Assembly: GCF_003790525.1 (NCBI RefSeq)
Contig: NZ_CP033635.1
Source of the DNA: Escherichia coli
GTDB taxonomy: Bacteria; Pseudomonadota; Gammaproteobacteria; Enterobacterales; Enterobacteriaceae
Strand: one strand, 5' to 3'
DNA: 64,000 nucleotides
Positions within the stretch are counted from its first letter, which is position 1, and the number at the start of each line of letters is the position of its first letter. Positions 31,934-49,499 of this stretch are shown piece after piece. The translations under genes and the position numbers were made by a program. The notes under the pieces are model-generated. The model made no database searches, was not told the DNA's origin, and was given only the letters and a program-made list of their open reading frames with translations.

Positions 31934-32965
31934 TCACTTTTTCTCTGGTTGTACTTCATGCCCTTGGCAGCCACACGACTCTCCTGTTCGTAAATAAAAC
32001 TCAAATTCAACGCGGCGAACTTCTCCATCCCAATTTTTCAGCATGTCAATTGCCGCACGGGCCATCTTATCGACAGGTTGTCGAACAGCAGTTAAAGAAG
32101 GGACGTTGTAAACCGATTCTTGTGTTGCATTAAAGCAGACCAGCGCAACATCTTCAGGAACGCGCAGCCCATGTTCTGCCAGGGCGCGTAAACAACCGAG
32201 AGCCTGTTGTTCATTCGTCGCAAACAGGGCGCGTGGCAGTTGGTTCTCAAGCATGCGTTTTGTCGCTTCGTAACCGCCGGCGCGGGTATAGTTGGTCGAA
32301 AAAATCCATGAGGGATTGACCACTAACGATGAGGCTTCCAGCGCCTGCCGCCAACCCCGGATACGATCCTGAGTATTCAGCATTTCACGTGGGCCGCAGA
32401 TGATGCCGATGTCGCGGTATCCGTGATCAATCAGATGTTGTGTTACCAGCATTGCCGCCAGTTGTTCATCAACCTGGATAACGCTGACGTTAAGTCCAGG
32501 ATCCACACGATCGAGCATGACGCAGGGGGTACCGCTCTCCTGAATCAAATTGATATAAGGATGGCGATCAACACTGGTGTAGATCAGCCCGTCAACCTGA
32601 CGGTGCAGCATATTATTAATGAGTTCACGTTCACGGCAGCTACTGTCGCCTGCGTCTCCCAGCAGGAGTACTTTGCCATCAGCAAAGGCTTCGTGCTGCA
32701 GAGCATGAGCTATAGAAGCGATAAACGGGTTCGAGATGTCCGGCACGACTAGCCCGTAAGTTTGCGTACTCCCTGAAGCCAGCGCACGCGCGATGCCATT
32801 GGGTCGATAACCGGTTTTCTTAATTGCCTGTAGTACACGTTGCCGAGTCGCTTCGGCAACGGGGCGCGGACCATTATTAATAACGTAACTAACGACAGCG
32901 ACGGATGTCCCTGCTTCTTTTGCCACGTCAGAGCGTGTTACGCGTTGTGAATGTGATTGAGTCAC
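31934..32965 (-). CDS. LacI-family transcriptional repressor
   Basis: N-terminal HTH (...VTRSDVAKEAGTSVAVVSYVINN...) and periplasmic-binding-protein-like effector domain. Confidence 0.85.
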   Translation of the reverse strand: MTQSHSQRVTRSDVAKEAGTSVAVVSYVINNGPRPVAEATRQRVLQAIKKTGYRPNGIARALASGSTQTYGLVVPDISNPFIASIAHALQHEAFADGKVLLLGDAGDSSCRERELINNMLHRQVDGLIYTSVDRHPYINLIQESGTPCVMLDRVDPGLNVSVIQVDEQLAAMLVTQHLIDHGYRDIGIICGPREMLNTQDRIRGWRQALEASSLVVNPSWIFSTNYTRAGGYEATKRMLENQLPRALFATNEQQALGCLRALAEHGLRVPEDVALVCFNATQESVYNVPSLTAVRQPVDKMARAAIDMLKNWDGEVRRVEFEFYLRTGESCGCQGHEVQPEKK

Positions 32966-33069
32966 GAAGCACCTACCTAATTGCGTTCAGAGTGATTTTT
33001 TCCAGACAGCATAAGGCGTTATGACCCAAAAATCTTTGGTAAAGAACGCGCATCTCACGTTCTCTGGCC

Positions 33070-34470
33070 TTAAATTGCATCCTCGGGTAAGTTGAGATCC
33101 CGCCCGCGAGTCTCTGGTGCAAAGAACGTGGTCACCAGTCCAATCGCGGCCATAAAGGCGAAATAGATAGCGATTGGCCACCAGTGTCCGTAAAACGAGA
33201 GTAGCGCAGAGGCGATAAGTGGCGCTGTCCCGCCAGACATAATGGAACCGAGCTCTTTTGCAAATGCCATTTTGGTATAACGATTAGTGACACCGAAAAG
33301 CTCAACGCCCCACGCAGCCTGAACACCAAAAATACCCAGTGAAGCAAGCCCCATCCCGGTAATGATCGTCGGGATAACAATCCACGGCTCACGGGAATCC
33401 AGCAGCATAAATGCTGGAAAGGCATACAGGATCAGTAACAGGCAGAACCAACGATAGATGATACGTCTACCGAATCTATCGGACAGCCAACCCGCCAGAG
33501 GAATAATGGCAAATCCCAGAACGGATGCAATAAGTACGGCTGCCGTGGGTACGGACTCATCTACCATTAGTACTTTAGCGACATAACCAATGATAAACCC
33601 CTGAGCGAGATAAGAAGGACCATTCTCACCTATGCGTAATCCGACCATAGTCCAGAAGGCACGGGTCCGTTTCCAGAAGCTACGAGTGTCATGTTGTTGT
33701 TGTGCTTTTCCCTCACGAAGAACCTTTTCTCGTTCAGCCTGCAGAAGGGCTTTTTGACGTTCAAAGACTGGTGTTTCGCGTATATGACGACGAATTAATA
33801 GAGCGGCAGCAGCAATAAGAATGCTACAAAGAAAAGGAATACGCCATCCCCAGTTTAATAAGTCATCCTTGTCCATTTGCAGGACGATGAGCCAAACCAG
33901 TGAAGCCAGTAATGTTCCGCTGTTCGACCCCAGACCAATAACAGATGAAACTAGTCCACGTCGTTTAACGGGAGCATATTCACCAAGCATCACAGTACCG
34001 CCTGAAAGCTCCGCGCCAGCTCCCAGCCCCTGAGAAAATCGAAGGATAACCAGACATATCGGTGCCCAGACGCCTATCTGGGCGTAACTGGGGATTAATC
34101 CTATTAGCATGGTCGACATGCCCATCAATCCAATAGTGATAACCATGACAATTTTCCGACCATGTTTATCGCCTATCCAGCCGAACAGTAATGCACCAAT
34201 AGGGCGGGCAATAAACCCAACAGAATAGGCGGCAAAGCTGGAAAGTAATGCTATGACGGGTGTCACCTCCGGAAAAAAGACATCGCCAAAGATAATACCT
34301 GCGGCAAGTCCGTACAGAGCAAAATCGGCATACTCCATTGTAGTGCCTAGCCAGCAGGAAAAGGTAGCTCTCCAAAACTCGCGACGTCCCTCGGGGGTTT
34401 CCAGACGCTCCTGAGCTGCCTGTTGGTTATCCACTAGGGGAACAGAGGATGATGGATGATGTGTGTTCAT
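33070..34470 (-). CDS. MFS transporter (metabolite:H+ symporter subfamily)
   Basis: 466 aa, 12 TM segments, MFS motif GxLxDRxGRR (GWIGDKHGRK / LSDRFGRR). Confidence 0.85.
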   Translation of the reverse strand: MNTHHPSSSVPLVDNQQAAQERLETPEGRREFWRATFSCWLGTTMEYADFALYGLAAGIIFGDVFFPEVTPVIALLSSFAAYSVGFIARPIGALLFGWIGDKHGRKIVMVITIGLMGMSTMLIGLIPSYAQIGVWAPICLVILRFSQGLGAGAELSGGTVMLGEYAPVKRRGLVSSVIGLGSNSGTLLASLVWLIVLQMDKDDLLNWGWRIPFLCSILIAAAALLIRRHIRETPVFERQKALLQAEREKVLREGKAQQQHDTRSFWKRTRAFWTMVGLRIGENGPSYLAQGFIIGYVAKVLMVDESVPTAAVLIASVLGFAIIPLAGWLSDRFGRRIIYRWFCLLLILYAFPAFMLLDSREPWIVIPTIITGMGLASLGIFGVQAAWGVELFGVTNRYTKMAFAKELGSIMSGGTAPLIASALLSFYGHWWPIAIYFAFMAAIGLVTTFFAPETRGRDLNLPEDAI

Positions 34471-34894: not shown

Positions 34895-36314
34895 GGTGTC
34901 AACGACGGATGAAAAGTGGCTCTTCCGCAACCTGGGTGGAAGAAAATGGATGAAACTTTCTGGTGAATAAAGATCTAAGCTGTTTTAAGTTATGGGCAAC
35001 GCAATGCACTCTCTTAAGACACTTCTACAGTTACCTTGCGGATGGAGATGCAGTCGACAAATTATTAGCTCTGACGGTATAACCCTCCATCTCCACGGAA
35101 AACGCAAAACAGCACAAGTCCTGAATGCTTTAAGCGTAGCGACTCTGTTCATAGTTATCGTCGGCGCCGGATACAGCATCTACCCTGCTTAGGGCAGACG
35201 CTATGGCTTGTATTTTCCGTCCGCCACTGGTACTGCCGTAACCCGGCTTGTTCACGTAAAATTTTTGCCGGGTCGCTTGCCCCCTTCGCCGGTTCACTCC
35301 CAGCATTCTTCACAGGTGTTACAAAATTTACAACATCAACTGGGATTAATAGCCGGAGGTGAGGCCGGGAAACAGGCAGCAACGGCAGTGGGGCTCCGTT
35401 GCAGTGCTGATACTCTTCTTCGCAGGGTTATTAATACCCCGGAGACGAAACAGTCAGGCGCGCCTCATGTCGGTATTGATGAGTGGGCGTGGCATCGGGG
35501 CTACCATTACGGTACGTTAATCGTCAATCTTTATACTCACCGTCCCCTCGTCCTGCTTCCCGGTTGCGATCAGAGTACGCTGGCGACCTGGTTCAGAAAA
35601 TATCCGGAAATACAGGTTGTCTCACGTGACCGTGGCGGAGTCTATGCGACAGCAGCACGTGAAGGTGCACCTCAGGCCAGACAGATAGCTGATCGATGGC
35701 ACCTGCTAAAAAATATTGGCGATGCGCCTGAACGAATGATGTACAGACAGATGCCTCTGATACGTCTTGTTGCCAGTGGGTTGTCACCAAAGAAATCACC
35801 TGAGCCAGAACTGTCTGTGCCTGTAGCATCGCTCCGTCGTCCGGAACGCCTTAAACAGCAAACCCGCCAAAAATGGCATCAGCGTTGGACAGAGGTTATG
35901 GCACTACATAACAAGGGATGTGGGTTCAGGGAAATATCCCGTATTACAGACTTATCACGTGTGACAGACAGTCTCTGGGTGTGTTCAGGAACATTCCCTG
36001 AAATGTCAACCCGGCCTCCAGAGCGAGGACTTATGGACCCATGGAAGGAGTGGTTAAAAGAGCAACGAGAAAGTGGTAACTTCGGCGCGTGGCTGCGAGG
36101 ATGGAAGCTGATGCTGCGGCTATATGTGAGGCAATCAGCAGTCGCTGGAATAATGGGGGGTGTCGAAAGTCATGTAAATCGGCTAAAAATGCTGAAAGGC
36201 CAGATGTATGGTCGAGCCGGATTTGAACTACTCAGGCAGAGGGTCATGAGTCCACTGGCATGAAAATCTCCATCCAGGTTGCGGAAGAGCCACTTTTCAT
36301 CCGTCGTTGACAGC
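34895..36314 (+). mobile_element. ISL3-family insertion sequence with ~40-bp terminal inverted repeats; transposase split by a frameshift
   Basis: Left end GGTGTCAACGACGGATGAAAAGTGGCTCTTCCGCAACCTGG is mirrored by its reverse complement at 36275-36314; transposase in two frames (34992-35192 and 35208-36263). Confidence 0.75.
34992..36263 (+). pseudogene. ISL3-family transposase, frameshifted (N-terminal 66-aa part and C-terminal 351-aa part)
   Basis: C-terminal part contains the ISL3-type core (...HVGIDEWAWHRGYHYGTLIVNL...); the N-terminal fragment is in another frame with a stop at 35192. Confidence 0.65.
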
Positions 36315-37098
36315 TTGGGGGGTAGTGCATCGGTACCTCTAGGTCAAAGGAGGTATTCATATCCATATTAACGACTTGAATATGTTGACAGTACTGATTC
36401 AGATTAACGAAAAACGACCGAGCTTCTCTACTACGCACCTCACCTATCCAGAGGATTGATGAGTATCCGCATCGGCTACGACGGTGCGTAACGATGAGCT
36501 TTGAACAGGGCAAACTCTTTCATGACCCGGCCTTGGCAGTACATCAATCAGACCCTGTGACCTCTATTTGCAACTGACGTTTGTCGATAGTATTGATGAT
36601 ATGCTAGTGCAGGGTAAGAAATTACGAAATATGTTTAATCGGCAAGATTTTGAGTAACGCCTCAACATGCTCAATGAGTCATGTGGTCTGATGAGCATAA
36701 GGCTTTAGCCAGCTGATATAATCCCGAACTATGCCGTAGTTAGGGCAAAGAATGCGGTAGACGGGTAGGCGTAACTGAACTGGAAATACCAGTATTGTTC
36801 ATTACGATAAGGTGCGAAGTAAAGCATCGTGAACGGCTTTAGCCTGTTTGCCACAAGAATAATGACCGTTTTCAATCGGTTTTAGGTGGATGATGAGGGG
36901 GATTTTACTCAGTAGGGACGACGTCAAAGCCTATCCAGAGATAAATGGAAAAGATAGTATTCGAAATTGAGAACGGTTGGGGTTGGTTATCGTTCTGTTT
37001 TAGCAACTAAACAATAACTCCCCAACCGTTATCATTTCCAGCACACGATAATCTGCAATGAACATTAAAAATTCACGGCGGCGGTCGCTTTCCTTAAT

Positions 37099-38061
37099 TT
37101 ACGTCTCCTCTTGGGAGTGGATAATATGGGTGCCTGTTTCGCCACGCAGTGCCGCGGACAGGCATTCAGGCGTGGTGATAATCACTCTTTTACCTCCACG
37201 TTCCAGGAACTCCAGACTGGCAAGAATCTTCGGTAACATACTCCCAGGCGGGAAGTGACCCTCCTGCATGTAACGGGCCATCGTTAGGACATCCACTGTA
37301 TCCAGTGCATGCTGGTTGGGTTTCCCAAAATGAATACTCACTTTTTCCACGCCGGTGGTGATCACCAGAATGTCGGCGTGAATTTCGCGAGCCAGTAGCG
37401 CGCTAGAGAGATCTTTGTCGATAACCGCGTCCACGCTTTGGTAATCCCCTGCGTCAGTACGCACCACCGGAATGCCACCGCCGCCCGCGCCAATCACCAC
37501 AAAGCCTTGCTGGATCAGAGTCTTAATGGCAGGTGCTTCGACAATACGTTTCGGTTCCGGCGAGGCGACCACGCGGCGATAGCCCCGTCCGGCATCTTCA
37601 ACAAAACGCCAGTCAGGGTTTGCCTTTTGTAGTTCATCACGCTGGTTTTCACTAAAGAATGCACCGATGGGCTTGGTGGGATGGACAAACCCCGGATCGT
37701 TTTTATCCACTTCCACCTGAGTCACCACGGTGACGGCTTTTTTCTCGCCGTGAGGCGCCAGCCGGTTGTTCAGCGCCTGCTGGATCAGATAGCCAATGCC
37801 GCCTTGCGTATCCGCCACACAGTTCGCCAGCGGCGTTAAGGGTAGCCCTTCGCGCTCGTGGGCTATCTCCGCGCGGCGTAAATCCAGACCGACCTGCGGC
37901 CCGTTGCCGTGGGTCAGCACAATGTCGTAATCGGAAGCCAGCATTTCCAGAACCGTATCGGCGACGGCCTTCACCGCCTCCGCCTGATGCTCAATCGACT
38001 GGCTGGCGTTATCTTTGATAATGCTGTTGCCACCAATGGCAACGACCACAAGTTCTTTCAT
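37099..38061 (-). CDS. yahI: Carbamate kinase-like protein (YahI)
   Basis: Amino-acid-kinase fold (VVVAIGGNSI..., ...THGNGPQVG...); position after yahG and length match K-12 yahI as recalled. Confidence 0.75.
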   Translation of the reverse strand: MKELVVVAIGGNSIIKDNASQSIEHQAEAVKAVADTVLEMLASDYDIVLTHGNGPQVGLDLRRAEIAHEREGLPLTPLANCVADTQGGIGYLIQQALNNRLAPHGEKKAVTVVTQVEVDKNDPGFVHPTKPIGAFFSENQRDELQKANPDWRFVEDAGRGYRRVVASPEPKRIVEAPAIKTLIQQGFVVIGAGGGGIPVVRTDAGDYQSVDAVIDKDLSSALLAREIHADILVITTGVEKVSIHFGKPNQHALDTVDVLTMARYMQEGHFPPGSMLPKILASLEFLERGGKRVIITTPECLSAALRGETGTHIIHSQEET

Positions 38062-38087
38062 AGAATTATCTTCCGTTTGCAGGCTAT

Positions 38088-39638
38088 TCAGGTCGTTTTA
38101 GTCTCTTCCTGCTCAGACGCAGCCACTGTTTCACGGCTATCAATAACATGCTTGAGGGCAAACATAGCAAGCATCATCAGGTAGGCCACAACAAACACAA
38201 TCGAGCTGCCTTCCGCAAAGCCAACCGCTGGGGAGTGAATCACGCCAAACAGCGATAACAGTGCTCCAAAGGATGCAGCTATCGCCCCGCGCAGCGGCTT
38301 ATTCATAATGGCAAAGATCGCAATGCATCCCCACAGCATGCTGGCCAGCGGTGCACCGCTTCCCAGATGCATCAGTCCATCGTAATAGACGCCTTTGCTG
38401 TGCAACAGGTCGCTACCAAGTTTCTCAGCGGATGTTCCGGCTGCGCCCATCACGCTGTTAACGATGGTCAATGCCCAGTTGGCGACCCATGGGAACAGAC
38501 AGATGAAAATAACGGGAACCTCGACTTTAGGAGTTTCTCGCACCACCTGATTGGCGGTTACCACACCGATAAAAACCAGAATTGGCACTATAGCAGTCAT
38601 GGGAATAATGGCGAGCATAAACGCGCCCAACCCAAACAATGGCACCAGGAACATAGTGATGCCTGATGCGAGGGTATAGCAGATACTAGCGCCCATAGCT
38701 TTCCAGCCTGCATGCCCAACATATACGGTTACCGGGAACGGATTACCCAGCATGCAACCGAGCATGGAGGCAAAGCCGTTCGCCATCATGACCTTACGGG
38801 TGTTGTATTCATCACCAGCCGCGTGCGCACTTTCAATGTTCTCGAGGTCAAAAATGTAGTTAGCCAGGCCCAAAGGAACTGCAGAAGCCAGATATGGCAG
38901 AGCGTGCGGCAAACCTTGCAGGAAGCTCCTTACATGAATTTCCGGCGGGTTGAAGCCGAAGGAAGACATCGACGCTTTAATGTCTTCCGGGCTTTGTAAA
39001 CCGGATATCCACGCTAGGGACGTACCAGCAATCAGCAACAGCAAACCGGTAGGAATATGGGGAAAAATCGGCTTCTTACCGAACCAGTTAATGAAGATCA
39101 ATAACAGGACGATGAAAGAAACTGTCGGCGCTTCGAACGCTTGCAGCATCGGGTTCATTGCCAGCAGTAATAACCCCAGTCCGGACAGACAAGAAAGCAG
39201 CACTGTACGCGGGATCATCTTGCGGATAGTCTCACCCAGGAAGGAGCCACCGACCAGGATCAACGCTTCGACAAAGCACCACACCAATCCTATCTGAATA
39301 GCAAAGTTGGCATCTTTGGTTTGCTGATAAACCGGCATCAGCACCAGGAATGTCACGGTAAAGATTGAGGGTGCGCTCGGTCCAGACGGCAGCGCCGTTA
39401 CATCGCTACGACCGGTTTTCTTCACCATCTGTAGACCAAACCAGGAGTAGCAGACACTGGCCGCCAGCACTGCAAGACCAAAGGCAGGCGCAATGCGTCC
39501 ATAGACAATTTCAGTAGGGATTCCGACGACAAAAATTAGCAGACCCATCATTGTCAGCAGGTTAGTCAGATTGTTGGTCATCAGTCCAAAGTAAGCCGCC
39601 CAGTCACCACGTTTCCATTCTAGTTTTATGCTGTTCAT
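38088..39638 (-). CDS. Putative inner-membrane transporter (family not assigned) between yahG and yahI
   Basis: 516 aa, at least 12 hydrophobic segments; occupies the position of the tiny yahH in K-12 (from memory). Confidence 0.55.
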   Translation of the reverse strand: MNSIKLEWKRGDWAAYFGLMTNNLTNLLTMMGLLIFVVGIPTEIVYGRIAPAFGLAVLAASVCYSWFGLQMVKKTGRSDVTALPSGPSAPSIFTVTFLVLMPVYQQTKDANFAIQIGLVWCFVEALILVGGSFLGETIRKMIPRTVLLSCLSGLGLLLLAMNPMLQAFEAPTVSFIVLLLIFINWFGKKPIFPHIPTGLLLLIAGTSLAWISGLQSPEDIKASMSSFGFNPPEIHVRSFLQGLPHALPYLASAVPLGLANYIFDLENIESAHAAGDEYNTRKVMMANGFASMLGCMLGNPFPVTVYVGHAGWKAMGASICYTLASGITMFLVPLFGLGAFMLAIIPMTAIVPILVFIGVVTANQVVRETPKVEVPVIFICLFPWVANWALTIVNSVMGAAGTSAEKLGSDLLHSKGVYYDGLMHLGSGAPLASMLWGCIAIFAIMNKPLRGAIAASFGALLSLFGVIHSPAVGFAEGSSIVFVVAYLMMLAMFALKHVIDSRETVAASEQEETKTT

Positions 39639-39750
39639 GGAATCTCCTTAACAGGTTAAGCATCGTTTGCGATCATGGAGATCGCCCAGCCCTGAAGGTA
39701 AACAACGTTTTCCGCTACTGTGGGGCTAACTGCGTTAGCCCCGGTTATTG

Positions 39751-41169
39751 TTATTGGCAGTAGTGGTCACGCCAGTTGAGGATCGCCTTTTCAAAACAAG
39801 TGAACGGCGGGTGAACAATTCCTGCGCCGATCATGCCGATCCCTGCGTCTTTGTGCGCAATGGCTGTGTTAATTACCGGCAGAATGCCTGTACTGCCTAC
39901 ACGTGTAATATCGATAGCGGTCGGTACGCCCATAAAACCAAGCAGGGGAATGGTGACGTTGGGGTTTTCTCCGAGAGTGATTTCTCTCATTTTACGTGAG
40001 AAATCAATAGCTTCCTCAACTGTTCCGCCCACCAGTGACACAATAGCTGGTGCCGTCGCCATAGCGAAACCGCCAACGCCGTAGGTTTCGGTAATTGCAC
40101 TATCACCGATATCACGTCCGGAATCCTCTAGCTTATAGCCCGCAAACATCGGCCCAATCACCTGCTGCGCCGGACCGGTAAACCACTGGCCCGGCAAACC
40201 GCTAATACGAAGACCGAACTCAACACCATTGCGTGCCATCGTTGTCACCACGGTGCTGTATTCAATGCCGTGCGCAGCGTCCATTGCGGCTTTACACATT
40301 GCCATCCATGTTGGTCCTGAGAAGTAATCACTACTGAGGACAAACTCGAACACCTCACGCTGCTGCTCAACAGGGTAGCCAGTCTGAATAATCCACGGCG
40401 TCAGCGTCTGAATCAGCAGCGCCGTCCCGGCGTTGTTGCGGTTATGGCACTCATCGCCCATATGCAGCGCCTGCGCTAACATCAAGTGCAGATCGATTTC
40501 GCCCGCCAGCTTCATAGCATCGCGCAACATAGGTCCCAGTACATCTCGCATCCAGTTAAGACGCTCTATAACGCTCTGGTCGTTAGCGCCCATACGCAGG
40601 ATCTTTGCCATCTGCTCGCTCATATTGGTATATGCGCGGTTTCCATAGGTTTTGTTCTCGACGATGTGCATAAACATCGATGCAGACGTGACACCCGCCA
40701 TTGAGCCGACACAGTCATGTTCGTGGCACGGAGAGAAGATGATTTCACCTGAAGCAGCTAGTTCGGCGGCATCATCCAGATCTTTCGCCAGTCCTTCAAA
40801 TACCAGAGCCCCGGTTACTGCGCCCTTCATTGCGCCGCACATTTTTTCCCAGTGGATTGGCGGCCCGGCGTGAAGGATAGTGTTACGGGTCATACCCGGC
40901 ACGACGTTGATCGCCTGATCATAGCCAATTAGCACAGGATGCGACTGGATAATGCGTTCCAGCGCCAGCTGATTAGCAGCTGCAATTTTGTCTGCCAGTG
41001 GTGAAGCGGCAATGTCGTCCAGTGCCGTTACCACTTGTATGTTTCCTTGGCCTGGCGGTGTCCAGTCAAGTTGGGTTACCGGTACATTCTGCTTTTTCAT
41101 GTCATCGCTGAACATTTCGATACCGACATTAATAACGTTCAGCGGCTGATTAAACAGTGTCTGGCTCAT
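39751..41169 (-). CDS. yahG: DUF1116-family protein (YahG)
   Basis: 472 aa; adjacent to an FdrA-like gene with overlapping stop/start (41169). Confidence 0.7.
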   Translation of the reverse strand: MSQTLFNQPLNVINVGIEMFSDDMKKQNVPVTQLDWTPPGQGNIQVVTALDDIAASPLADKIAAANQLALERIIQSHPVLIGYDQAINVVPGMTRNTILHAGPPIHWEKMCGAMKGAVTGALVFEGLAKDLDDAAELAASGEIIFSPCHEHDCVGSMAGVTSASMFMHIVENKTYGNRAYTNMSEQMAKILRMGANDQSVIERLNWMRDVLGPMLRDAMKLAGEIDLHLMLAQALHMGDECHNRNNAGTALLIQTLTPWIIQTGYPVEQQREVFEFVLSSDYFSGPTWMAMCKAAMDAAHGIEYSTVVTTMARNGVEFGLRISGLPGQWFTGPAQQVIGPMFAGYKLEDSGRDIGDSAITETYGVGGFAMATAPAIVSLVGGTVEEAIDFSRKMREITLGENPNVTIPLLGFMGVPTAIDITRVGSTGILPVINTAIAHKDAGIGMIGAGIVHPPFTCFEKAILNWRDHYCQ

Positions 41170-42716
41170 CAGCCTTCCTCCCCTTTAAATATAAATTCAC
41201 GTGCCAGTAATCCGGTGTTGGTGCTACTGCTTGCCCAAATAACCCCGGCATCGGTCAACATCTGACACTGTTTTTTCAGCGACGGTGTATCAAGGTCGGT
41301 TCCCAGCACATAGCCGAGGATCTCAAGCGGGCGACCGTCTGCGGCAGCAATTTCTTTGGCTTCAACAATTGTATCCAGCATCACTCCAACCGGATCTTCA
41401 TGTGATCCAAATCCAAGAATGAAGTCCATCACGATCACGCCAACTTCAGGATCCTGTGCTTCCTGCAAGAGCCGGGTAATGCGATTGGTGGGATCGATCA
41501 TCGGATGTGGTTTGCCGTTGGTAAAATAATCATCGCCGAAATCGAGGAAGGTATGCGCCACGCTACGGTTGAGATCTGTAAGGCGGAACGCCGGATTCGG
41601 GTGAATATTGCTATACACATCCGAGAGTTTTTCCATGGCAGTAAACATCGCTTCATCGCATAACGTGCCACCACAGAACAGGCCACGGATATACTTTTGT
41701 TGTGGAGTCAGACGGGAGCGAACCTCTTCAATCAGCTGCCAGTTGAGCGGATGCAAATCCAGACTCTCTTTTTTCACACCAGTCAACAGTACCGCTTTCA
41801 AGGCAGCCTCTTTAGTACCGCGGGCAAACTGTAGGCCTTCTTCATCCGCAGGGGTGGACTCACGTCCGAGGAAACACACCACCACAGGCTTGTGACAGGT
41901 GCGCGCACGTTCCAGCACCTTACGGGCTACCGCTGGTGCAGGAGGTTTGGATATAAGCGTAATGATCTCAGTTTGTGGATCGGCCTCCAGCATGCTAATC
42001 GCGTCAAGCATCATCAGGCCGCCAATTTTTTCACTCATATCGCGTCCACCTGTCCCAATCAGCTGGGAAATCCCGCCGCCAAATTCGTGAATGCGTACGC
42101 TCAGCTCCTGGCTACCCGTACCGGAGGCACCAATGATTCCGATGTTGCCGCGACGCACTGCATTGCCAAAACACAACGCTGCGCCGTTAATGATGGCGGT
42201 TCCACAATCAGGCCCCATCATCAACAACCCTTTTTCATGTGCCAGATGCTTGAGTTCCAGCTCGTCCTCAAGAGAGACGTTGTCAGAAAACAGCATAACA
42301 TTGAGGTTATTTTGTAGTGCCTGACGAGCTTCACGAGCAGCAAACAGGCCATTGACAGAGATCACCGCCAGATTACTCTCTGGAGCATGCTTCTTCGCAC
42401 TGGCAATCGTGGCATAGCGTGCTTCGTGCTGGCCTCCCTGTTCTTTATGCGCAAACAGCTCATCAATCGCTATTAGCGTCCGCTCGTTCGCCTCCTCGCT
42501 GGTACCTTTAATGACAATCATCAGATCGCCACTTTTCGCCTCTTCCAGCTCAGGGGTCAGCAGACCGAGATTCTTCAGCACCCCCTTATTCATCTCTGTC
42601 GCCATAGCAACAAATGCCTGCTCAACTCCATCAAGCTTATTTGCGCGCGTGGAGATAGACATCAGTGAAACAGAATCAAAATACGTGTTTTTTTTTACAA
42701 CTATCCTGATTGACAT
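41169..42716 (-). CDS. yahF: FdrA-like protein, CoA-binding/succinyl-CoA-synthetase-like fold (YahF)
   Basis: 515 aa; glycine-rich nucleotide/CoA-binding motifs (GIIGASGTG, GGRD). Annotated start overlaps yahE by 41 bp; start may be internal. Confidence 0.75.
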   Translation of the reverse strand: MSIRIVVKKNTYFDSVSLMSISTRANKLDGVEQAFVAMATEMNKGVLKNLGLLTPELEEAKSGDLMIVIKGTSEEANERTLIAIDELFAHKEQGGQHEARYATIASAKKHAPESNLAVISVNGLFAAREARQALQNNLNVMLFSDNVSLEDELELKHLAHEKGLLMMGPDCGTAIINGAALCFGNAVRRGNIGIIGASGTGSQELSVRIHEFGGGISQLIGTGGRDMSEKIGGLMMLDAISMLEADPQTEIITLISKPPAPAVARKVLERARTCHKPVVVCFLGRESTPADEEGLQFARGTKEAALKAVLLTGVKKESLDLHPLNWQLIEEVRSRLTPQQKYIRGLFCGGTLCDEAMFTAMEKLSDVYSNIHPNPAFRLTDLNRSVAHTFLDFGDDYFTNGKPHPMIDPTNRITRLLQEAQDPEVGVIVMDFILGFGSHEDPVGVMLDTIVEAKEIAAADGRPLEILGYVLGTDLDTPSLKKQCQMLTDAGVIWASSSTNTGLLAREFIFKGEEG

Positions 42717-43524
42717 AATTACCTCCGGACCTGTGGCTCAGGGCGCAGGCATCCGCCATGCCATACAGCATGTCGCATCCAGAACTTGAGCCTATATTTT
42801 TTATGTCAGTAACATATTGCGTAGAAATGGGTTGTGGCTCAGTAATAAATTGGTTCAGTAGCCGTCCGACTCTTTCCCGATAACGCTGATTAAATGCTTC
42901 CTCTAACGTTATTTTGCTGAGAAGCGTTATGTTATTTCCTGCAAGTTGTAATGCTGCTAAGAAATCGTATCTATACTTCCTTAGTGGATGTCCTTGAATA
43001 AATAAAATAGTGCTTAAACCTACTAAATAATCATCCGATGATGGCGTCAGCCCTATTCCAAGACCAATTAACTGGTTGACTGCCGCAGTGATGTTTTCTC
43101 CTGTACACAACGCCTTCAGCAAATTTTTTCGGCGGTTGAGTAATTGGCGAGAAATTTCCTGATAAAATGGATTGTCACCCTGGTACAGAAATAATGTGTC
43201 GTTGCTTCTTAGTTGTTGGCGGATAAACTCTTCCCAATGCTGCCAGCCGACTTTGGCAAGGCTTGCTGAATCAGATGTCCACCGTGGTATTCGCCACATC
43301 TGACAACCGGTTATTTCTATCCATTTATCATTTCCAACAGTTATTCCAGACCCGCTAAAATTGACCTGTTCACCGGGGTGAAAAAGGTCTTCATAATGTG
43401 TCAGTGCTAAACGACAACTGTTAGGTGCGTTATCACAATCCTCACTCAGTAACGTCAGCAGTCGCTGCTGTTCAGGTATTAACAGATTTACCGCATGGGA
43501 AAAAACCTGTTCAACCTGGCCCAT
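42676..43524 (-). CDS. yahE: DUF2877-family protein (YahE)
   Basis: 282 aa; position between the ankyrin gene and the FdrA-like gene as in the K-12 yahD-yahE-yahF order. Confidence 0.65.
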   Translation of the reverse strand: MGQVEQVFSHAVNLLIPEQQRLLTLLSEDCDNAPNSCRLALTHYEDLFHPGEQVNFSGSGITVGNDKWIEITGCQMWRIPRWTSDSASLAKVGWQHWEEFIRQQLRSNDTLFLYQGDNPFYQEISRQLLNRRKNLLKALCTGENITAAVNQLIGLGIGLTPSSDDYLVGLSTILFIQGHPLRKYRYDFLAALQLAGNNITLLSKITLEEAFNQRYRERVGRLLNQFITEPQPISTQYVTDIKNIGSSSGCDMLYGMADACALSHRSGGNYVNQDSCKKKHVF

Positions 43525-43609
43525 TCCCCGAAAAGTGAGAAACGCGCAGTCTGCGGTTAGTGCCCGAAAAGATTGCCGTGATAATATAGCGATAATCGTG
43601 CTCCTGTTG

Positions 43610-44215
43610 TCAGGCTCCAGCCGAAATCAGCAACTCGGCAATTTTGTGGTAGCCTTTTTCTCGCGCCAGCTCCAGCGGGGTTTTACCGTATTTATCCGTC
43701 ATGTGCGGGTTTGCGCCATGCTCAAGCAACAGTTTGACGATCTCCTGCTGCTTTTCACCGCCGTCATTCAGCACGATGGCCTCTAGGAGCGGCGTCCAGC
43801 CAACAAAATTAGTATGGTTGACATTGATATCAGTACGCATCAGCAATTCACGTACAATCTCGACATGGCCTTTTTCGCAGGCAGGTGTAATACCAACACC
43901 GCCAAAACGGGTTAGGCAATTAAGGTCGGGGTTAGCCGGTAATACCGTACGCAACAGTGTTAAATCATTATTCAGGCAGCCAATCAGGAAGGGATTAAAA
44001 CAAGTTTGATCTTGTTTATTAATATCAGCACCTGCGGAAATCAATAAAGAAACGCAGTCATAATGTTTATTCAGACTGGCAATAATAATTGCAGTACGCC
44101 CCTCGCGGTTAGTCGCATTAATATCAACCTTTTTATCAAGGCATGATTTTAATCCATCGGAATTACCTTGTTCTGCCGCCAGCAGAAATTCTGTAATGAG
44201 TTCTTTATTGGACAT
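43610..44215 (-). CDS. yahD: Ankyrin-repeat protein (YahD)
   Basis: 201 aa with repeated ankyrin motifs (...GRTAIIIASLNKHYDCVSLLISAGADIN..., ...GWTPLLEA...LLLEHGANP...). Confidence 0.8.
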   Translation of the reverse strand: MSNKELITEFLLAAEQGNSDGLKSCLDKKVDINATNREGRTAIIIASLNKHYDCVSLLISAGADINKQDQTCFNPFLIGCLNNDLTLLRTVLPANPDLNCLTRFGGVGITPACEKGHVEIVRELLMRTDINVNHTNFVGWTPLLEAIVLNDGGEKQQEIVKLLLEHGANPHMTDKYGKTPLELAREKGYHKIAELLISAGA

Positions 44216-44602
44216 AATCGATCTCCTGCTCTTTTTAAGATTTTACAAATATAACAAGCCAAGAATAGCAACAGAATGCATAGAGCACCATCCATTTAAA
44301 ATTTACTCATCATTAGACCATGAATTATTGAAACAAAATTAACAATAATAAGAGAGTGTGATATAGTTCAATATTTCTATTATAGCTGGGGATATTTTAG
44401 CCATTAATCCGCAGTCATATAAATAAAGGTGGTCTGCAGCACGGATAGCTGCCTGTAATTAAAATTCAGATGTGTGATTTCCTTCAAATTAAATGTAAAT
44501 ACGGTGTTAATTTTTTCAAAACTGATTGTCGGTTATAAGAATTACAAATACATTCAACAATCATCATGTTGTGTATGTGTATTGTCGCCAGAGGAAAGAA
44601 AG

Positions 44603-45532
44603 ATGAATTCAATATTTACGGAAGAAAACTTACTGGCATTTACTATGGCTGCCCGCTATAGAAGTTTCAGCAAGGCGGCGAAGGAACTGGGCTTAACCAC
44701 ATCGGCAATTAGTTACACTATCAAGCGTATGGAAATGGGGCTTGACGTGGTGCTTTTTACCCGAACTACCCGTAGCATTGAGCTGACCGAGCCCGGGCAC
44801 TACCTTTTTTGCAAAGCAACTGACCTGCTCAACGATTACCACTCCATCATACGTAGAGTTGATGCCATCGCTCAGGGAATTAAATCCCGGGTGCGCATTT
44901 GTATTAATCAACTGTTGTATACCCCTCAGCATACAGCTCGGCTTCTGCAAGTGCTCAGGGAACACTTTCCAACCTGCCAGATAGCTATTACTACAGAGGT
45001 GTATAATGGCGTCTGGGATTCACTCATTAATAACCAGGCTGATATCGCCATTGGCGCGCCCGATACGTTACTGGACGGTGGTGGAATTGATTACATTGAA
45101 ATCGGCATGATTCGTTGGTTGTTCGCGATTTCTCCGGCTCATCCGCTGGCGTTTATTCCTGAGCCCATTTCTGAGAGTCAGTTACGTCTGTACCCGAACA
45201 TCATGGTGGAAGACACTGCAAACACTATAAACAAAAAAGTCGGCTGGCTGTTACACGGGCAAGAGTCGATTCTGGTTCCCGACTTTAATACTAAGCTTCA
45301 GTGCCAGATCCTGGGGGAGGGAATCGGTTTTCTGCCAGACTATATGGTGCGTGAAGCGATGGAAAAGTCATTGCTGGTGACACGGCAGATCCACAACCCA
45401 CGTCAGGATTCACGAATGCTGTTGGCAACCAGGCATTCGGCAAGCGGTCAAGTCACTCAGTGGATAAAAAGAGAATTTAGCTTACAAGGAATACTGACGG
45501 GGATTTATCAGGATTTGATGCATCGAGCGTGA
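44603..45532 (+). CDS. yahB: LysR-family transcriptional regulator (YahB), divergent from yahD
   Basis: 309 aa from the internal Met with RBS; N-terminal HTH (...FTMAARYRSFSKAAKELGLTTSAISYTIKRME...) and LysR substrate-binding domain. Confidence 0.75.
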   Translation: MNSIFTEENLLAFTMAARYRSFSKAAKELGLTTSAISYTIKRMEMGLDVVLFTRTTRSIELTEPGHYLFCKATDLLNDYHSIIRRVDAIAQGIKSRVRICINQLLYTPQHTARLLQVLREHFPTCQIAITTEVYNGVWDSLINNQADIAIGAPDTLLDGGGIDYIEIGMIRWLFAISPAHPLAFIPEPISESQLRLYPNIMVEDTANTINKKVGWLLHGQESILVPDFNTKLQCQILGEGIGFLPDYMVREAMEKSLLVTRQIHNPRQDSRMLLATRHSASGQVTQWIKREFSLQGILTGIYQDLMHRA

Positions 45533-45873
45533 TGCACCGGATGGCAGTTTTACCTTTCGGTGCATCAATGAGATAAATGAAGGGCAATCAGTGAGATAAA
45601 TAACGAATTGGAGTGGGTTACATGGGTTCTGGTGAACAGAAATGAAATTCTTTTTCTCTATGCGATAGACAAATCGGGAATTGAAATCATCCCTACAGGC
45701 AACTCAGAATCTGGGGGCTGAAAACGCTACGAACCATCAGATTTGGATAATATTCATCACCGTTTCGGCCTGATTGTATCCAATCTGGAAGAAAAGTTTC
45801 ATGATTTTATGGGCGTTATCCTTATGGTGCTGGGCGACGAGAGTAATACTTCACGCCGGTTTTGTCGGATAAT

Positions 45874-45896
45874 CCAGAAATATAGGGGCAAATCCA
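45874..45896. mobile_element. Solo IS2 right-end-like terminus (23 bp)
   Basis: CCAGAAATATAGGGGCAAATCCA matches the IS2 right terminus except for one base; no IS2 body adjacent. Confidence 0.45.
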
Positions 45897-46141
45897 AACA
45901 GGAAAGATAGGGGGAGGGACGCGTTTCCGGCACAACCAGCGTTACGTCACCCTGCATTGTTAGTTACGAAAAGCGTACCGGAAACGCGGAACATTCTTTT
46001 AACACATTACAGGCATTCGCACACATCTTTTTTCTTCTTTGTGCTCTGAATACTGCAGTGCTCAATTAATATTAGCCACGTTTTACAGTAAGAACGGTAT
46101 CTGTTCTCTGATTCTTCCGGCGTCAACCCACAGTGTAATTA

Positions 46142-46571
<430 letters not shown>

Positions 46572-46634
46572 TCAGTCTGGTAACTATCGTAAACCGTTCA
46601 GTGGGAAGGATATCAAGAGCACTGTAGCTTTTTA

Positions 46635-46796
<162 letters not shown>

Positions 46797-47519
46797 TCAC
46801 TGGATTCCCGGTATGAGTAACTTTTATTAACGATAAGCCAGGCTATTTGTGCATTGGTGTTGAGGTGAGCATATCACCTCTGTTCAGGTGACCAAATTCA
46901 GTGTGCCATTTCAGTCTGTAATGCGCTGTGTGAAAAAGCTCACTGACAGTCTGAGTATTTGTCTGCAAAGGATGGAGGCCCGTCGAGGGTTCCTGAAAAC
47001 CACTGGTGCGCTGGCGAATAAGCTGACAAGAATCATCTGGCGTGTTTTGAGCGATAGTATTGATTTTAATATGCAGAAGGCCGTTGTGATGAATTAAATA
47101 AAAACAGCAAGTTATAGAAAATATTTTTAACTGAGTTTACATACACTGATGAGATAACGGCTACCGCCCCTGTAACAGTCTGAAGTTGATCTGGGTAATC
47201 AAATACCGGTGTAGTGATTAGGAAACAGGGCCCGGATAACATCATGGCGCAGGTCATTGAACCTACTAACGACGCCGGATATATGGTCGCAAACCGCATC
47301 GAACCAGTACTTGCCTCACCTGGGACGTCCATATATGCTCAACAAAAGAGAGCGTTCAGAATTCTAGCCTCACATCATACCTGAAACCGCGTCCCGACCA
47401 TAGATGATTTTATCGCCGGTTTTTTATAACAATTGTTATATTTCTGTAACAATCTTTCCGTAGACTCACGTGCATAAAAATGATTCCCCTTGAAATCGAT
47501 TTTTTGAAAGGAAACCGCA

Positions 47520-49499
47520 ATGGGCAGACCGTTAAAAACTTTATTCAAACGTGAGCATAGTGAAGAAATCAGTAACCCGAGCGATAACCGCGCGTTTTCG
47601 CAGGTGGCGGAAGTTTATTTGTCACGCCGCCGTCTGTTACAGGCCGGCACGGTCGCCGGTGCCGCGGCAGCGTTCCCATTTCTGCTGAAACAGGAAAACG
47701 CGCTGGCGAAAGTGGTCTCCAAAGCAAGCGGTAACCTCGGCAAAGCGACGACGCTCGGTTTCACCAGCCTGCCGGTTTCCACGGAAGATACCGTTATCGT
47801 GCCGGAAGGATACATCGCGAAGCCCTTCTACAAATGGGGCGACGCCACCGGGATTGCCGGAAATCTGCCGGTTTTTAAAACCGACGGTAGCAACACCACG
47901 GAAGAACAGGCGGCGCAGGCCGGGATGCACCACGACGGCATGGCGTGGTTTAGCCTGCCGCAGGGCGGGAACAGCTCCGATCACGGCCTGCTTGCCATAA
48001 ACCATGAATACATCGATAACGGTCTACTGTTTAAAGATGGCGATGCCAACTGGAGCGCCGATAAAGCTCTTAAAGGCCAGAACGCGATGGGCGTGTCGGT
48101 CATTGAAGTAAAAAAAGTGCCCCTGGGCTGGGAAGTGGTGCGCCCGTCATCGTTCGCACGCCGTATCACCGTTAACACGCCGATGAAAATCACCGGTCCG
48201 GCGCTGCATAACCCACTGATGCAAACAGTTGACGATCCGAAAGGCGAAATCATTCTCGGCACCATGCAGAACTGTGCCAACGGATTTACGCCGTGGGGCA
48301 CCTATCTGACGTGTGAAGAGAACTGGTCCGATATTTTCGTAAAAAAAGCAGAGATGAACCCGCTGGAAAAACGTTACGGTATCAGCGGGAGCGACGACTC
48401 TTACCGCTGGAACGAAGTGGATAAAAGGTTCAGCGTCGACGCCACGCCGAACGAGCCGAACCGCTTCGGCTGGGTGGTGGAAATCGATCCATACGATCCG
48501 CATTCAGTGCCGCGCAAGCACACCGCGCTTGGTCGCATCAAACACGAAGGCGCGGCGGTGACAATTGCCCCGGATAACCGCGTTGTGGTCTATATGGGCG
48601 ATGACCAGAAATTCGAATACATATATAAATTTGTCTCGGAAGGAAAATTCAACCCGCAGGATCGCAAAGCCAACATGCACCTGCTGGAAAAAGGCACTCT
48701 GTACGTGGCGAAATTTAACGACGACGGCAAAGGCGAGTGGCTACCGCTGGTGTTCGGACAAAATGGGCTCGACGCCAGTAAAGGGTTTGAAAACCAGGGC
48801 GACCTGTTGATTAAAACCCGTCTGGCGGCAGACGCCGTGGGGGCCACTAAAATGGACCGCCCGGAGTGGATTGCGGTCGATCCATATCACGCCGGCAGCG
48901 TTTACTGCACGCTCACCAACAACAGCGATCGCGGTACGGAAGGAAAAGCGCCAGTGGATGCGGCCAACCCGCGCGCCAAAAACGTTTACGGCCACATCAT
49001 TCACTGGCTGGAGCATAACGGCGACCCGACCGCGCTGCAGTTTGCCTGGGATATTCTTGTGATGGGCGGTCGCACCGATACGGACAAACCGGAAACCAAA
49101 GGCAGCATGAAGGGTGCGGAATTCGGCAGCGCCGATGGCCTGAGCTTCGATCACCGCGGCGTGCTATGGATCCAGACCGACGTGTCGTCATCAACCATCA
49201 ATAGTAAAGATTACAAAGGCATGGGCAACAACCAGATGGTGGCGACGATCCCCGGTACCAATGAGTTCCGCCGCTTCCTGACCGGCCCGCGCGGCTGCGA
49301 AATCACCGGCATCGCGTTCACTCCGGATAACCGGACGCTGTTTATTAACATCCAGCACCCTGGCGAGCCAAGCGAAGGGCTTAGCGATCCGCAGCATCCG
49401 ACGGCAGTATCAAGCTGGCCTGACGGCGATAAGGCTGGTCGTCCGCGCTCCTCAACTGTCGTTATCGTAAAAGCCGACGGCGGCATAATCGGCACCTGA
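47520..49499 (+). CDS. PhoX-family (DUF839) phosphatase with twin-arginine signal peptide
   Basis: 659 aa; Tat motif SRRRLLQAGTVAGAAAA near the N-terminus; length and composition fit PhoX-type alkaline phosphatases. Confidence 0.65.
   Translation: MGRPLKTLFKREHSEEISNPSDNRAFSQVAEVYLSRRRLLQAGTVAGAAAAFPFLLKQENALAKVVSKASGNLGKATTLGFTSLPVSTEDTVIVPEGYIAKPFYKWGDATGIAGNLPVFKTDGSNTTEEQAAQAGMHHDGMAWFSLPQGGNSSDHGLLAINHEYIDNGLLFKDGDANWSADKALKGQNAMGVSVIEVKKVPLGWEVVRPSSFARRITVNTPMKITGPALHNPLMQTVDDPKGEIILGTMQNCANGFTPWGTYLTCEENWSDIFVKKAEMNPLEKRYGISGSDDSYRWNEVDKRFSVDATPNEPNRFGWVVEIDPYDPHSVPRKHTALGRIKHEGAAVTIAPDNRVVVYMGDDQKFEYIYKFVSEGKFNPQDRKANMHLLEKGTLYVAKFNDDGKGEWLPLVFGQNGLDASKGFENQGDLLIKTRLAADAVGATKMDRPEWIAVDPYHAGSVYCTLTNNSDRGTEGKAPVDAANPRAKNVYGHIIHWLEHNGDPTALQFAWDILVMGGRTDTDKPETKGSMKGAEFGSADGLSFDHRGVLWIQTDVSSSTINSKDYKGMGNNQMVATIPGTNEFRRFLTGPRGCEITGIAFTPDNRTLFINIQHPGEPSEGLSDPQHPTAVSSWPDGDKAGRPRSSTVVIVKADGGIIGT

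Follow-up and report, generated by a model that had tools for sequence, protein, structure and literature searches.

AllFGH of Escherichia coli is an oxamic transcarbamylase that converts oxalurate and phosphate into carbamoyl phosphate and oxamate, after which AllK makes ATP, and AllH is needed for its activity (PMC11326118). A cluster of related type, located in the tkt1 island of extraintestinal pathogenic E. coli (ExPEC), codes for an isochorismatase, yahE/F/G-like products, a carbamate kinase and an NCS1 permease (PMC3349570, PMC12928451), with identities of ~46% to YahG and ~40% to FdrA (PMC12928451). In strain K-12, the genes yahD, yahE, yahF, yahG, yahI and yahJ are uncharacterised members of the 'y-ome'. 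Their neighbour yahH was described in a survey of this gene set as 'filled with REP23 sites' (PMC11551758). Here, we analyse a further yah-type cluster, found at positions 37099–45532 of a 64,000-nt stretch of E. coli DNA from contig NZ_CP033635.1; this whole stretch is called the window, and all coordinates are positions in it. Our results make it probable that segment 37065–45564 is a horizontally acquired yah operon of the Citrobacter freundii-complex type, captured by insertion sequences (IS) and spreading on ColV/IncF plasmids and in the selC island, whose products may serve a catabolic route for ureides. Our literature search found no paper describing this module on ColV plasmids or the family of its permease; on yahD to yahJ and DUF1116/DUF2877, it returned nothing but studies of AllFGH and genome papers that describe another AllFG-type cluster.

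Results

Gene content and nearest relatives

The cluster consists of seven open reading frames (ORFs), all intact in the window, and a divergent control region:

37099–38061, minus strand: carbamate kinase gene (yahI-like), 320 aa; NCBIfam PRK12352, 629 bits (cut-off 266)
38088–39638, minus strand: permease gene, 516 aa, between the yahG-like and yahI-like genes
39751–41169, minus strand: yahG-like gene (AllG/DUF1116 family), 472 aa
41169–42716, minus strand: yahF-like gene (FdrA/AllF family), 515 aa
42676–43524, minus strand: yahE-like gene (AllH/DUF2877 family), 282 aa
43610–44215, minus strand: ankyrin-repeat yahD-like gene, 201 aa, first in the operon
44216–44602: divergent control region that separates the operon from the LysR gene, AT-rich (GC content 39–41%)
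44603–45532, plus strand: LysR-type regulator gene (yahB-like), 309 aa, divergent; as mechanically called, its ORF begins at GTG 44474

A scan for the permease, with one genome per species, returned 80 loci. The nearest permeases (94–95% aa identity) are those of Citrobacter youngae, C. braakii, C. werkmanii and an unnamed Citrobacter, followed by those of Trabulsiella, Buttiauxella, Leclercia, Lelliottia, Enterobacter, Serratia, Providencia, Proteus and Aeromonas, and then by those of Betaproteobacteria and Bacillales. Comparison by tblastn of all window proteins, together with K-12 YahJ and YahC, against these 80 loci revealed one Enterobacterales architecture, with a LysR gene on the opposite strand followed by ankyrin-(AllH)-AllF-AllG-permease-carbamate kinase-YahJ. 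This order and strand are found in ~70 loci from Citrobacter to Proteus and Aeromonas and also in the window cluster. The yahJ gene comes last in nearly all related loci, directly after the kinase gene, and tblastn found no yahC in the permease-bearing ones.

The relationship to Citrobacter extends to the nucleotide level. Positions 37065–45564 form one colinear alignment with C. braakii, as they do with a metagenomic contig of Citrobacter type (85.5% nt identity), and this alignment runs from a stub of yahJ to 32 nt beyond the LysR stop (45564). Excluding the kinase gene, the identity per gene is 84–89% to C. braakii/youngae versus 71–82% to K-12, Citrobacter being the nearest relative gene by gene except for the kinase. 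In a neighbour-joining tree of YahF plus YahG, the window copy falls inside the C. freundii-complex clade, and the native K-12 genes belong to a neighbouring Yokenella/Trabulsiella/Citrobacter group where they are nested among permease-bearing operons. By parsimony, this nesting implies that the native E. coli locus lost its permease; as judged from the tree, the permease-bearing layout is ancestral and the K-12 locus is derived. The genes beside the operon vary with the genus, being pga/rcn in Citrobacter, nrd/ygaP in Enterobacter and pdeL/yahK in E. coli; evidently, the operon moved repeatedly. The gap between yahG and the permease gene carries a further mark of the C. freundii complex:

39639–39750, minus strand: yahG-permease spacer, 112 nt, with two hairpins at 39721–39743 and 39669–39685

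In the C. freundii complex, the only group that shares these hairpins, their stems are conserved and their loops vary; no Rfam match was obtained for them. The corresponding gap measures 11–13 nt in Trabulsiella, Yokenella, Enterobacter and Buttiauxella, and the spacer of Providencia has a different sequence.

An earlier, sequence-only reading of this DNA had proposed the seven genes as yah homologues, and all ORFs were found where it had placed them. Their lengths agree within a few codons with those of K-12 yahI/G/F/E/D/B (316/472/515/287/201/310 aa), as it had stated, and the homology was borne out by alignment to K-12, with aa identities of 85/72/53/83/90/93% for yahB/D/E/F/G/I. It had also placed a 516-aa transporter in the yahG–yahI interval, as opposed to only a tiny yahH there in K-12; the ORF is present, and K-12 has only a 297-nt 'yahH' between the two genes. 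Its remark on the lack of a yahC-like ORF agrees with tblastn of K-12 YahC against the whole window, which was empty, and K-12 YahJ gave no tblastn match anywhere in the 64 kb either. All module genes are already annotated by the NCBI Prokaryotic Genome Annotation Pipeline (PGAP) in more than 140 genomes. Promoter-like and terminator matches were no commoner than in shuffled sequence, so that no operon boundaries can be claimed, and an Rfam scan of 36900–46000 gave one sub-threshold snoRNA match only, taken as chance.

Comparison with the native yah locus

Megablast of 37099–45532 against 5,426 complete E. coli genomes yielded 148 records that match at ≥99% over the full length, and ~4,970 records that match at ~82% nt identity over yahI, yahG-yahF and part of yahE, which correspond to the native locus. 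In K-12, the yahG–yahI interval comprises 420 nt and consists of four tandem repetitive extragenic palindromic (REP) units, i.e. an array of the REP/bacterial interspersed mosaic element type; searches of this interval for a permease remnant by tblastn and blastn gave chance matches only. A diverged native permease was likewise not found in any of the 5,426 genomes, all 147 records matching in blastn mode being ≥99% identical.

These data bear on the alternative that the window holds the native yah locus of E. coli, kept in an undeleted state, as the sequence-only reading had suggested when it spoke of an undeleted ancestral form. The part of this suggestion that concerns the layout stood, since the permease-bearing arrangement is truly ancestral for the family as far as the tree indicates, and the gene families, order and lengths are those of K-12 yahB/D/E/F/G/I. 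The part that equates the cluster with the resident locus did not. Instead of lying between pdeL/yahB and yahK (betT–prpR region), the cluster is located between an ISL3 element and an IS3 remnant and adjoins tRNA-Sec or sits on plasmids; it is ~82% identical in nt to native yah versus ≥99% among the 147 carrier records, and its nearest relatives are from Citrobacter. Its content differs as well, with no yahC, a permease at the yahH position, flanking IS elements and a yahJ reduced to an 11-codon stub. Moreover, carrier chromosomes also hold the native locus: the yahG-yahF query matches two places in chromosomes with a single permease copy (e.g. MDR_56, EF5-18-41 and AR_0085), which means that the acquired copy coexists with native yah. 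Strain PK8566 has the acquired copy only. The TUM9803 chromosome (NZ_CP135671.1) also displays two places each for the permease, the yahGF query and the A9 region discussed below, which represent two module copies; its two places were rejected as proof of native yah because the strain holds two permease copies, and co-occurrence is for this reason argued from the single-permease chromosomes. Location and co-occurrence together rule out the native-locus explanation, to which we give practically no credence. By sequence comparison, the cluster is a homologue and not an orthologue of K-12 yah, in other words a xenologue.

Genomic context and distribution

The best megablast match is the chromosome of TUM9803, with 100% identity, and the window is colinear with this record. 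In TUM9803, an island of ~61 kb between setC and tRNA-Sec contains a tyrosine integrase gene, toxin-antitoxin genes and much IS debris. The boundaries of the module and the anchors of the island are found in the window as follows:

34992–37064, plus strand: ISL3-family element, its transposase gene frameshifted and ending at 36263; marks the left edge of the module (mapped from the PGAP annotation of TUM9803)
46218–46898: remnant of an IS3-family transposase gene, right boundary of the plasmid-shared segment
55054–56238, minus strand: tyrosine integrase gene, island anchor
56538–56632, minus strand: tRNA-SeC, island anchor

The tRNA-SeC gene, the adjacent integrase gene, the IS debris and accessory genes, absent from K-12, are the hallmarks of a tRNA-anchored island. 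Homology to Citrobacter stops at 37065, directly beside the ISL3 element. Segment 37048–46898 is common to plasmid pAPEC-O2-211A-ColV at 99.8%; there, the cluster and the ISL3 piece are set apart by inserted mobile DNA that includes a Tn3-family transposase gene (breakpoint 37048–37052). The plasmid surroundings of the module comprise IS1, IS100, ISL3 and Tn3-family elements, as seen in this plasmid.

At blastn sensitivity, the permease gene was detected in 141 of the 5,426 complete E. coli genomes, always at ≥99%, and occupies 106 plasmid and 45 chromosomal places. In PLSDB, 70 plasmids match at ≥99%, of which five belong to Klebsiella pneumoniae; the majority of the 86 matching plasmid records have a conjugative prediction. 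The E. coli carriers mostly hold the cluster on ColV/IncF plasmids from poultry. Among 60 sampled carrier records, 33 are of avian origin (poultry or other birds) and 18 of human origin, and a sample of native-yahI matches contained two chicken isolates out of 37.

Several neighbouring genes were recorded along the way. To the left of the ISL3 element, positions 30163–34470 carry MgtC/SapB, nucleoside hydrolase, LacI-family regulator and MFS transporter genes; they are common to TUM9803 and PK8566, are not in the plasmid form and resemble a separate nucleoside-utilisation unit. The island also contains PhoX-family phosphatase and EptA-like phosphoethanolamine-transferase genes (47520–49499 and 51738–53240) amid IS fragments. 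About 8 kb from the module, pAPEC-O2-211A-ColV bears a second, different AllFG-type cluster that resembles the ExPEC tkt1-island cluster; its genes include arcC, one for a cytosine-permease-like protein and a small hypothetical one.

Truncation, mosaicism and possible decay

The kinase end of the operon displays two alterations:

37065–37098, minus strand: yahJ remnant, first 11 codons, with ATG changed to ATT, as aligned to C. youngae, the Citrobacter-like contig and K-12
37379–38032, minus strand: gene-conversion tract of E. coli yahI type in the kinase gene, ~650 bp

The yahJ stub (34 nt) begins directly after the kinase stop, still encodes the KES..RREFL twin-arginine translocation (Tat) motif and is followed by ISL3 sequence, only codons 1–11 of this terminal gene being left in the window copy. 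Because the plasmid form has this yahJ/ISL3 junction too, the truncation is older than the spread of the module. In the kinase gene, 150-nt sliding windows over the first two-thirds or so showed 92–98% identity to K-12 yahI versus 72–87% to Citrobacter, and those over the last third 73–77% to K-12 versus 81–85% to Citrobacter. About 81 of the 92 informative sites between 38032 and 37379 are of the K-12 type, and both flanks are of the Citrobacter type. A K-12-type tract within a Citrobacter-type gene shows that the acquired and the resident copies recombined.

Such features could also be expected from selectively neutral cargo that decays while hitch-hiking on ColV plasmids and the selC island. 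Besides the truncated yahJ, the IS debris that bounds the module and the mosaic kinase gene, independent disruptions are in favour of this view: IS50R splits the yahE-like gene in the MDR_56 chromosome, ISVsa5 insertions lie in the yahF/yahG region of strain S51 and of one plasmid, and one record has a shortened A9 tract (see below); the bias towards avian hosts can be explained by the plasmid backbone. Against it stand the integrity of all seven ORFs, in the window as well as in most carriers, the identity of 145 out of 147 E. coli records over a 90-bp query that covers the A9 tract, and the persistence of the module in several settings, both chromosomal and plasmid-borne, Klebsiella included. 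In addition, the coding changes among four intact copies are 10 synonymous and five non-synonymous, which corresponds to a ratio of non-synonymous to synonymous rates (dN/dS) of roughly 0.17 on small numbers and is compatible with purifying selection. On balance, we consider neutral decay an unlikely account of the module.

The A9 tract at the yahE/yahF overlap

The sequence-only reading had drawn attention to a run of nine A residues in the overlap between yahE and yahF, which is indeed present on the minus strand:

42688–42696, minus strand: A9 run in the 41-nt yahE/yahF overlap, encoding V-K-K-N of YahF and K-K-K of the YahE tail

Relatives carry GTTAAAAAGAAC at this site. In all 12 relatives examined, the V-K-K-N of YahF is encoded by GTT AAA AAG AAC, i.e. 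A5GA2 or similar, versus GTA AAA AAA AAC in the window, and the TAA within GT|T AA|A serves as their YahE stop. Two substitutions that are synonymous in yahF made the A9 and removed this YahE stop, with the result that the window YahE is six codons longer (…DSCKKKHVF) and that the overlap grew from 23 to 41 nt. As far as this comparison tells, the A9 is a recent by-product of two point changes and not a conserved feature. Nor does its occurrence go beyond chance: the window contains three runs of nine A/T versus 1.7 expected, a number that 27 of 100 shuffles attain. Nine-A/T runs are also located at 3770–3778, near the 5' end of a YaiO-like outer-membrane protein ORF (3032–3805, minus strand), and at 13035–13043, inside the ORF 12210–13289 (minus strand).

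The tract might nevertheless act as a functional switch, either by turning yahF on and off through phase variation or by generating a YahE-YahF fusion through transcriptional slippage. Nine A/T is the length at which slippage of RNA polymerase becomes significant in many bacteria (PMC1088944), and the window tract has this length together with a defined product one nucleotide away: in silico, A8 fuses yahE and yahF in frame into 784 aa and cuts the separate yahF ORF to 17 codons, and A10 truncates both genes. A natural fusion of the same domain order exists in Zophobihabitans entericus, whose otherwise standard yah-type operon encodes AllH-AllF as a single ORF of 817 aa. A8 itself occurs in plasmid EC19 p1, where PGAP flags fdrA as frameshifted. 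This is the sole A8 among 147 records; the same copy has another yahE lesion, and the A8 could be a sequencing error. With the tract absent from all relatives examined, nearly invariant among the E. coli records and not more frequent than chance in the window, a switch appears very unlikely. A minor YahE-YahF fusion product formed by slippage is conceivable, and the lack of conservation makes a programmed role unlikely.

Permease and enzyme families

The permease has no Pfam match even at E ≤ 10 and no NCBIfam match, and a sequence search of the PDB remained empty even with a 25-sequence profile; its AlphaFold model (predicted local distance difference test score 78, predicted template-modelling score 0.72) displays a 14-helix 7+7 inverted repeat. 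Foldseek assigned a probability of 1.00 to SVCT1, UraA, SLC26Dg, BicA, UapA and AZG1/2 (template-modelling scores ~0.45–0.64). Comparison by hhalign gave AdeQ at E=0.001 with 21% probability and nothing for YbbY. One homologue of the permease has a precomputed match to PF00860, and source labels read 'xanthine permease' or 'AGZA family'. The window protein thus has the 7+7 UraA fold in its model and lacks the PF00860 (Xan_ur_permease) profile of the NCS2/NAT-AzgA families. Its homologues are 65–95% identical from Citrobacter to Brevibacillus (65–71% between Enterobacterales and Bacillales) and almost always adjoin AllF/AllG genes. On the basis of the predicted fold, the permease is a divergent, unnamed and highly conserved branch of the 7+7 UraA/SLC23/SLC26-fold transporters.

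The paralogy to allantoin-region genes put forward by the sequence-only reading also found support. The YahF-like protein reaches 490 bits with NCBIfam PRK06091 (FdrA; cut-off 433) and is 38% identical to AllF, and the YahG-like protein is 46% identical to AllG (BLASTP E=6e-119) and 95–96% identical to its Citrobacter counterparts. The YahE-like protein contains a full-length Pfam AllH domain (E=2e-22) and gave no BLASTP match to AllH; it is the fastest-evolving member of the cluster, with 53% identity to K-12 YahE and 74–81% to Citrobacter. The kinase is 93% identical in aa to K-12 YahI and 38% to AllK. Residues 12–53 of YahG align with the C-terminal tail of K-12 AllF (513–554; E=1.4e-4), which points to a segment that moved between adjacent subunit genes; this putative transfer supports a physical contact between the F and G subunits.

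The best NCBIfam matches of the regulator are AllS (268 bits, cut-off 372) and PunR (229 bits, cut-off 345), both below their cut-offs, so that it does not qualify as an AllS member. The ankyrin gene accompanies AllF, AllG and the permease from Enterobacterales to Bacillales. In Enterobacter, Leclercia, Lelliottia, Silvania, Huaxiibacter and Aeromonas, the operon has no AllH-like gene at all, and its ankyrin gene abuts the AllF-like gene. YahJ orthologues from Enterobacterales to Rhodobacteraceae, including K-12 YahJ, share a conserved twin-arginine signal peptide (S/N-RR-E/Q-F-L … A-x-A), and their nearest solved relatives are AtzC (E=2e-43) and cytosine deaminase, which predicts that YahJ is a periplasmic deaminase. 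In Rhodobacteraceae, the permease and YahJ homologue genes are adjacent without AllF/AllG, and in Brevibacillus and Neobacillus the clusters are joined by a PucR regulator, an NCS1 permease, CDA-type deaminases and TRZ/ATZ-type aminohydrolases.

Discussion

By analogy with AllFGH and AllK, the yah-type unit is most likely phosphorolytic and ATP-yielding. In the complete eight-gene form, a Tat-exported YahJ, resembling AtzC and cytosine deaminase, would deaminate an amino-N-heterocycle in the periplasm, and the permease would import the deaminated product. YahEFG would then move the carbamoyl group of a ureido compound to phosphate, like AllFGH run catabolically, and the kinase would turn carbamoyl phosphate and ADP into ATP, NH3 and CO2. 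The ankyrin protein, being invariably linked to these genes, is probably an extra subunit or chaperone of YahEFG. The mobile copy, which has the permease and no yahJ, and the native locus, which has yahJ and no permease, may complement each other. What the data show directly is the identity, origin, mobility, truncation and mosaicism of the module, along with its protein families and the fold of the permease; which way the reaction runs, a periplasmic step that supplies the permease, the part played by the ankyrin protein and the complementation are inferred.

A simpler proposal would be that the module encodes a second oxamate carbamoyltransferase with its carbamate kinase, i.e. a spare allFGHK for the anaerobic use of allantoin or oxalurate, whose permease imports oxalurate or a related ureide. 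Genes of the FdrA/AllF, DUF1116/AllG and DUF2877/AllH families do lie alongside one for a carbamate kinase, PGAP labels the YahE-like product 'oxamate carbamoyltransferase subunit AllH family' and the YahF-like one FdrA, and the LysR regulator is most similar to AllS. The poultry gut is rich in urate derivatives, which would suit such a function. However, the identities to AllF, AllG and AllK are only 38/46/38%, AllH is undetectable by BLASTP, and the regulator remains under the AllS cut-off. The cluster never stands beside allDCE or other all genes and is always accompanied by the ankyrin protein, this permease and the AtzC-like periplasmic deaminase, a constant company that suggests a different substrate. 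E. coli, moreover, already has allFGHK. Taken together, we find a spare copy of this system doubtful.

As a more speculative extension, which we put forward only tentatively, the yah-type operon might be a complete and so far unrecognised catabolic route for an amino-N-heterocycle, with AtzC-like deamination in the periplasm, uptake through a new branch of UraA-fold transporters, AllFGH-like phosphorolysis by an enzyme with an ankyrin subunit, and ATP formation by the kinase. The mobile copy might then restore a pathway crippled by the loss of the permease, borrowing the native yahJ, and might give poultry-associated E. coli a source of nitrogen and energy in the avian gut.

Our preferred interpretation of the segment as a mobile, Citrobacter-type operon with a catabolic ureide function has to be weighed against a number of observations. 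Our literature search revealed no functional experiment on any yah-type cluster. With only 38–46% identity to AllF/AllG and no BLASTP match to AllH, the chemistry could differ, and the missing AllH in several genera renders the subunit composition uncertain. No ring-opening enzyme is encoded, which means that the step from heterocycle to ureido compound is missing. The truncated yahJ and the broken carrier copies may indicate partly dispensable cargo, and the poultry bias may reflect nothing but hitch-hiking on ColV plasmids.

These results do not overturn the current understanding, and their value resides in a lead towards the function of the yah genes. K-12 is the wrong background to study them because its locus is derived and has lost its dedicated transporter, and Citrobacter, Enterobacter, Providencia and others, which keep the eight-gene unit, offer a concrete experimental system. 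The candidate substrates are narrowed to amino- or oxo-N-heterocycles and ureido products. This work also identifies a metabolic cargo module of the ColV plasmids of avian pathogenic E. coli (APEC) and ExPEC and of the selC island, and documents gene conversion between an acquired and a resident gene copy.

Among known systems, the operon of the C. freundii complex (C. braakii, C. youngae and C. werkmanii) is the closest. It has the same order and orientation, is colinear with the window copy at 84–85.5% nt identity over 8.5 kb, shares the two-hairpin yahG-permease spacer and encodes proteins that are 87–96% identical (74–81% for YahE). Unlike it, the window copy lacks yahJ past codon 11, is flanked by IS elements instead of pga/rcn genes, and bears an E. 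coli-type conversion tract in the kinase gene, the A9 run and a YahE that is six codons longer.

The K-12 locus yahB-yahC-yahDEFG-yahH-yahIJ has homologous LysR, ankyrin, AllH-, AllF- and AllG-like and kinase genes in the same order and of near-identical lengths, but it also includes yahC, a REP array ('yahH') in place of the permease and an intact yahJ, occupies a different chromosomal site and is only 53–93% identical in aa and 69–90% in nt.

E. coli allFGHK (PMC11326118) shares the three subunit families and the carbamate kinase, and the reaction type is likely shared as well, with a ureido compound and phosphate giving carbamoyl phosphate and an amine, and then ATP. It differs by identities of 38–46%, by the position of the H gene (first in the yah-type order and not last) and by ~40 C-terminal residues of AllF that correspond to the YahG N-terminus; the yah-type cluster, which is not linked to allantoin genes, adds the ankyrin protein, the dedicated permease and, ancestrally, a putative periplasmic deaminase.

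The tkt1-island cluster is likewise an accessory, island- or plasmid-borne AllF/AllG/kinase module of ExPEC and APEC, but its permease is NCS1/CodB-like, and an isochorismatase-family hydrolase replaces the ankyrin protein and the AtzC-like deaminase. Finally, the window permease, although devoid of PF00860, NCBIfam or PDB sequence matches, is predicted to share its 14-helix 7+7 fold with the NCS2/NAT and AzgA transporters (UraA, UapA, SVCT1 and AZG1/2) and with the SLC26/SulP family.

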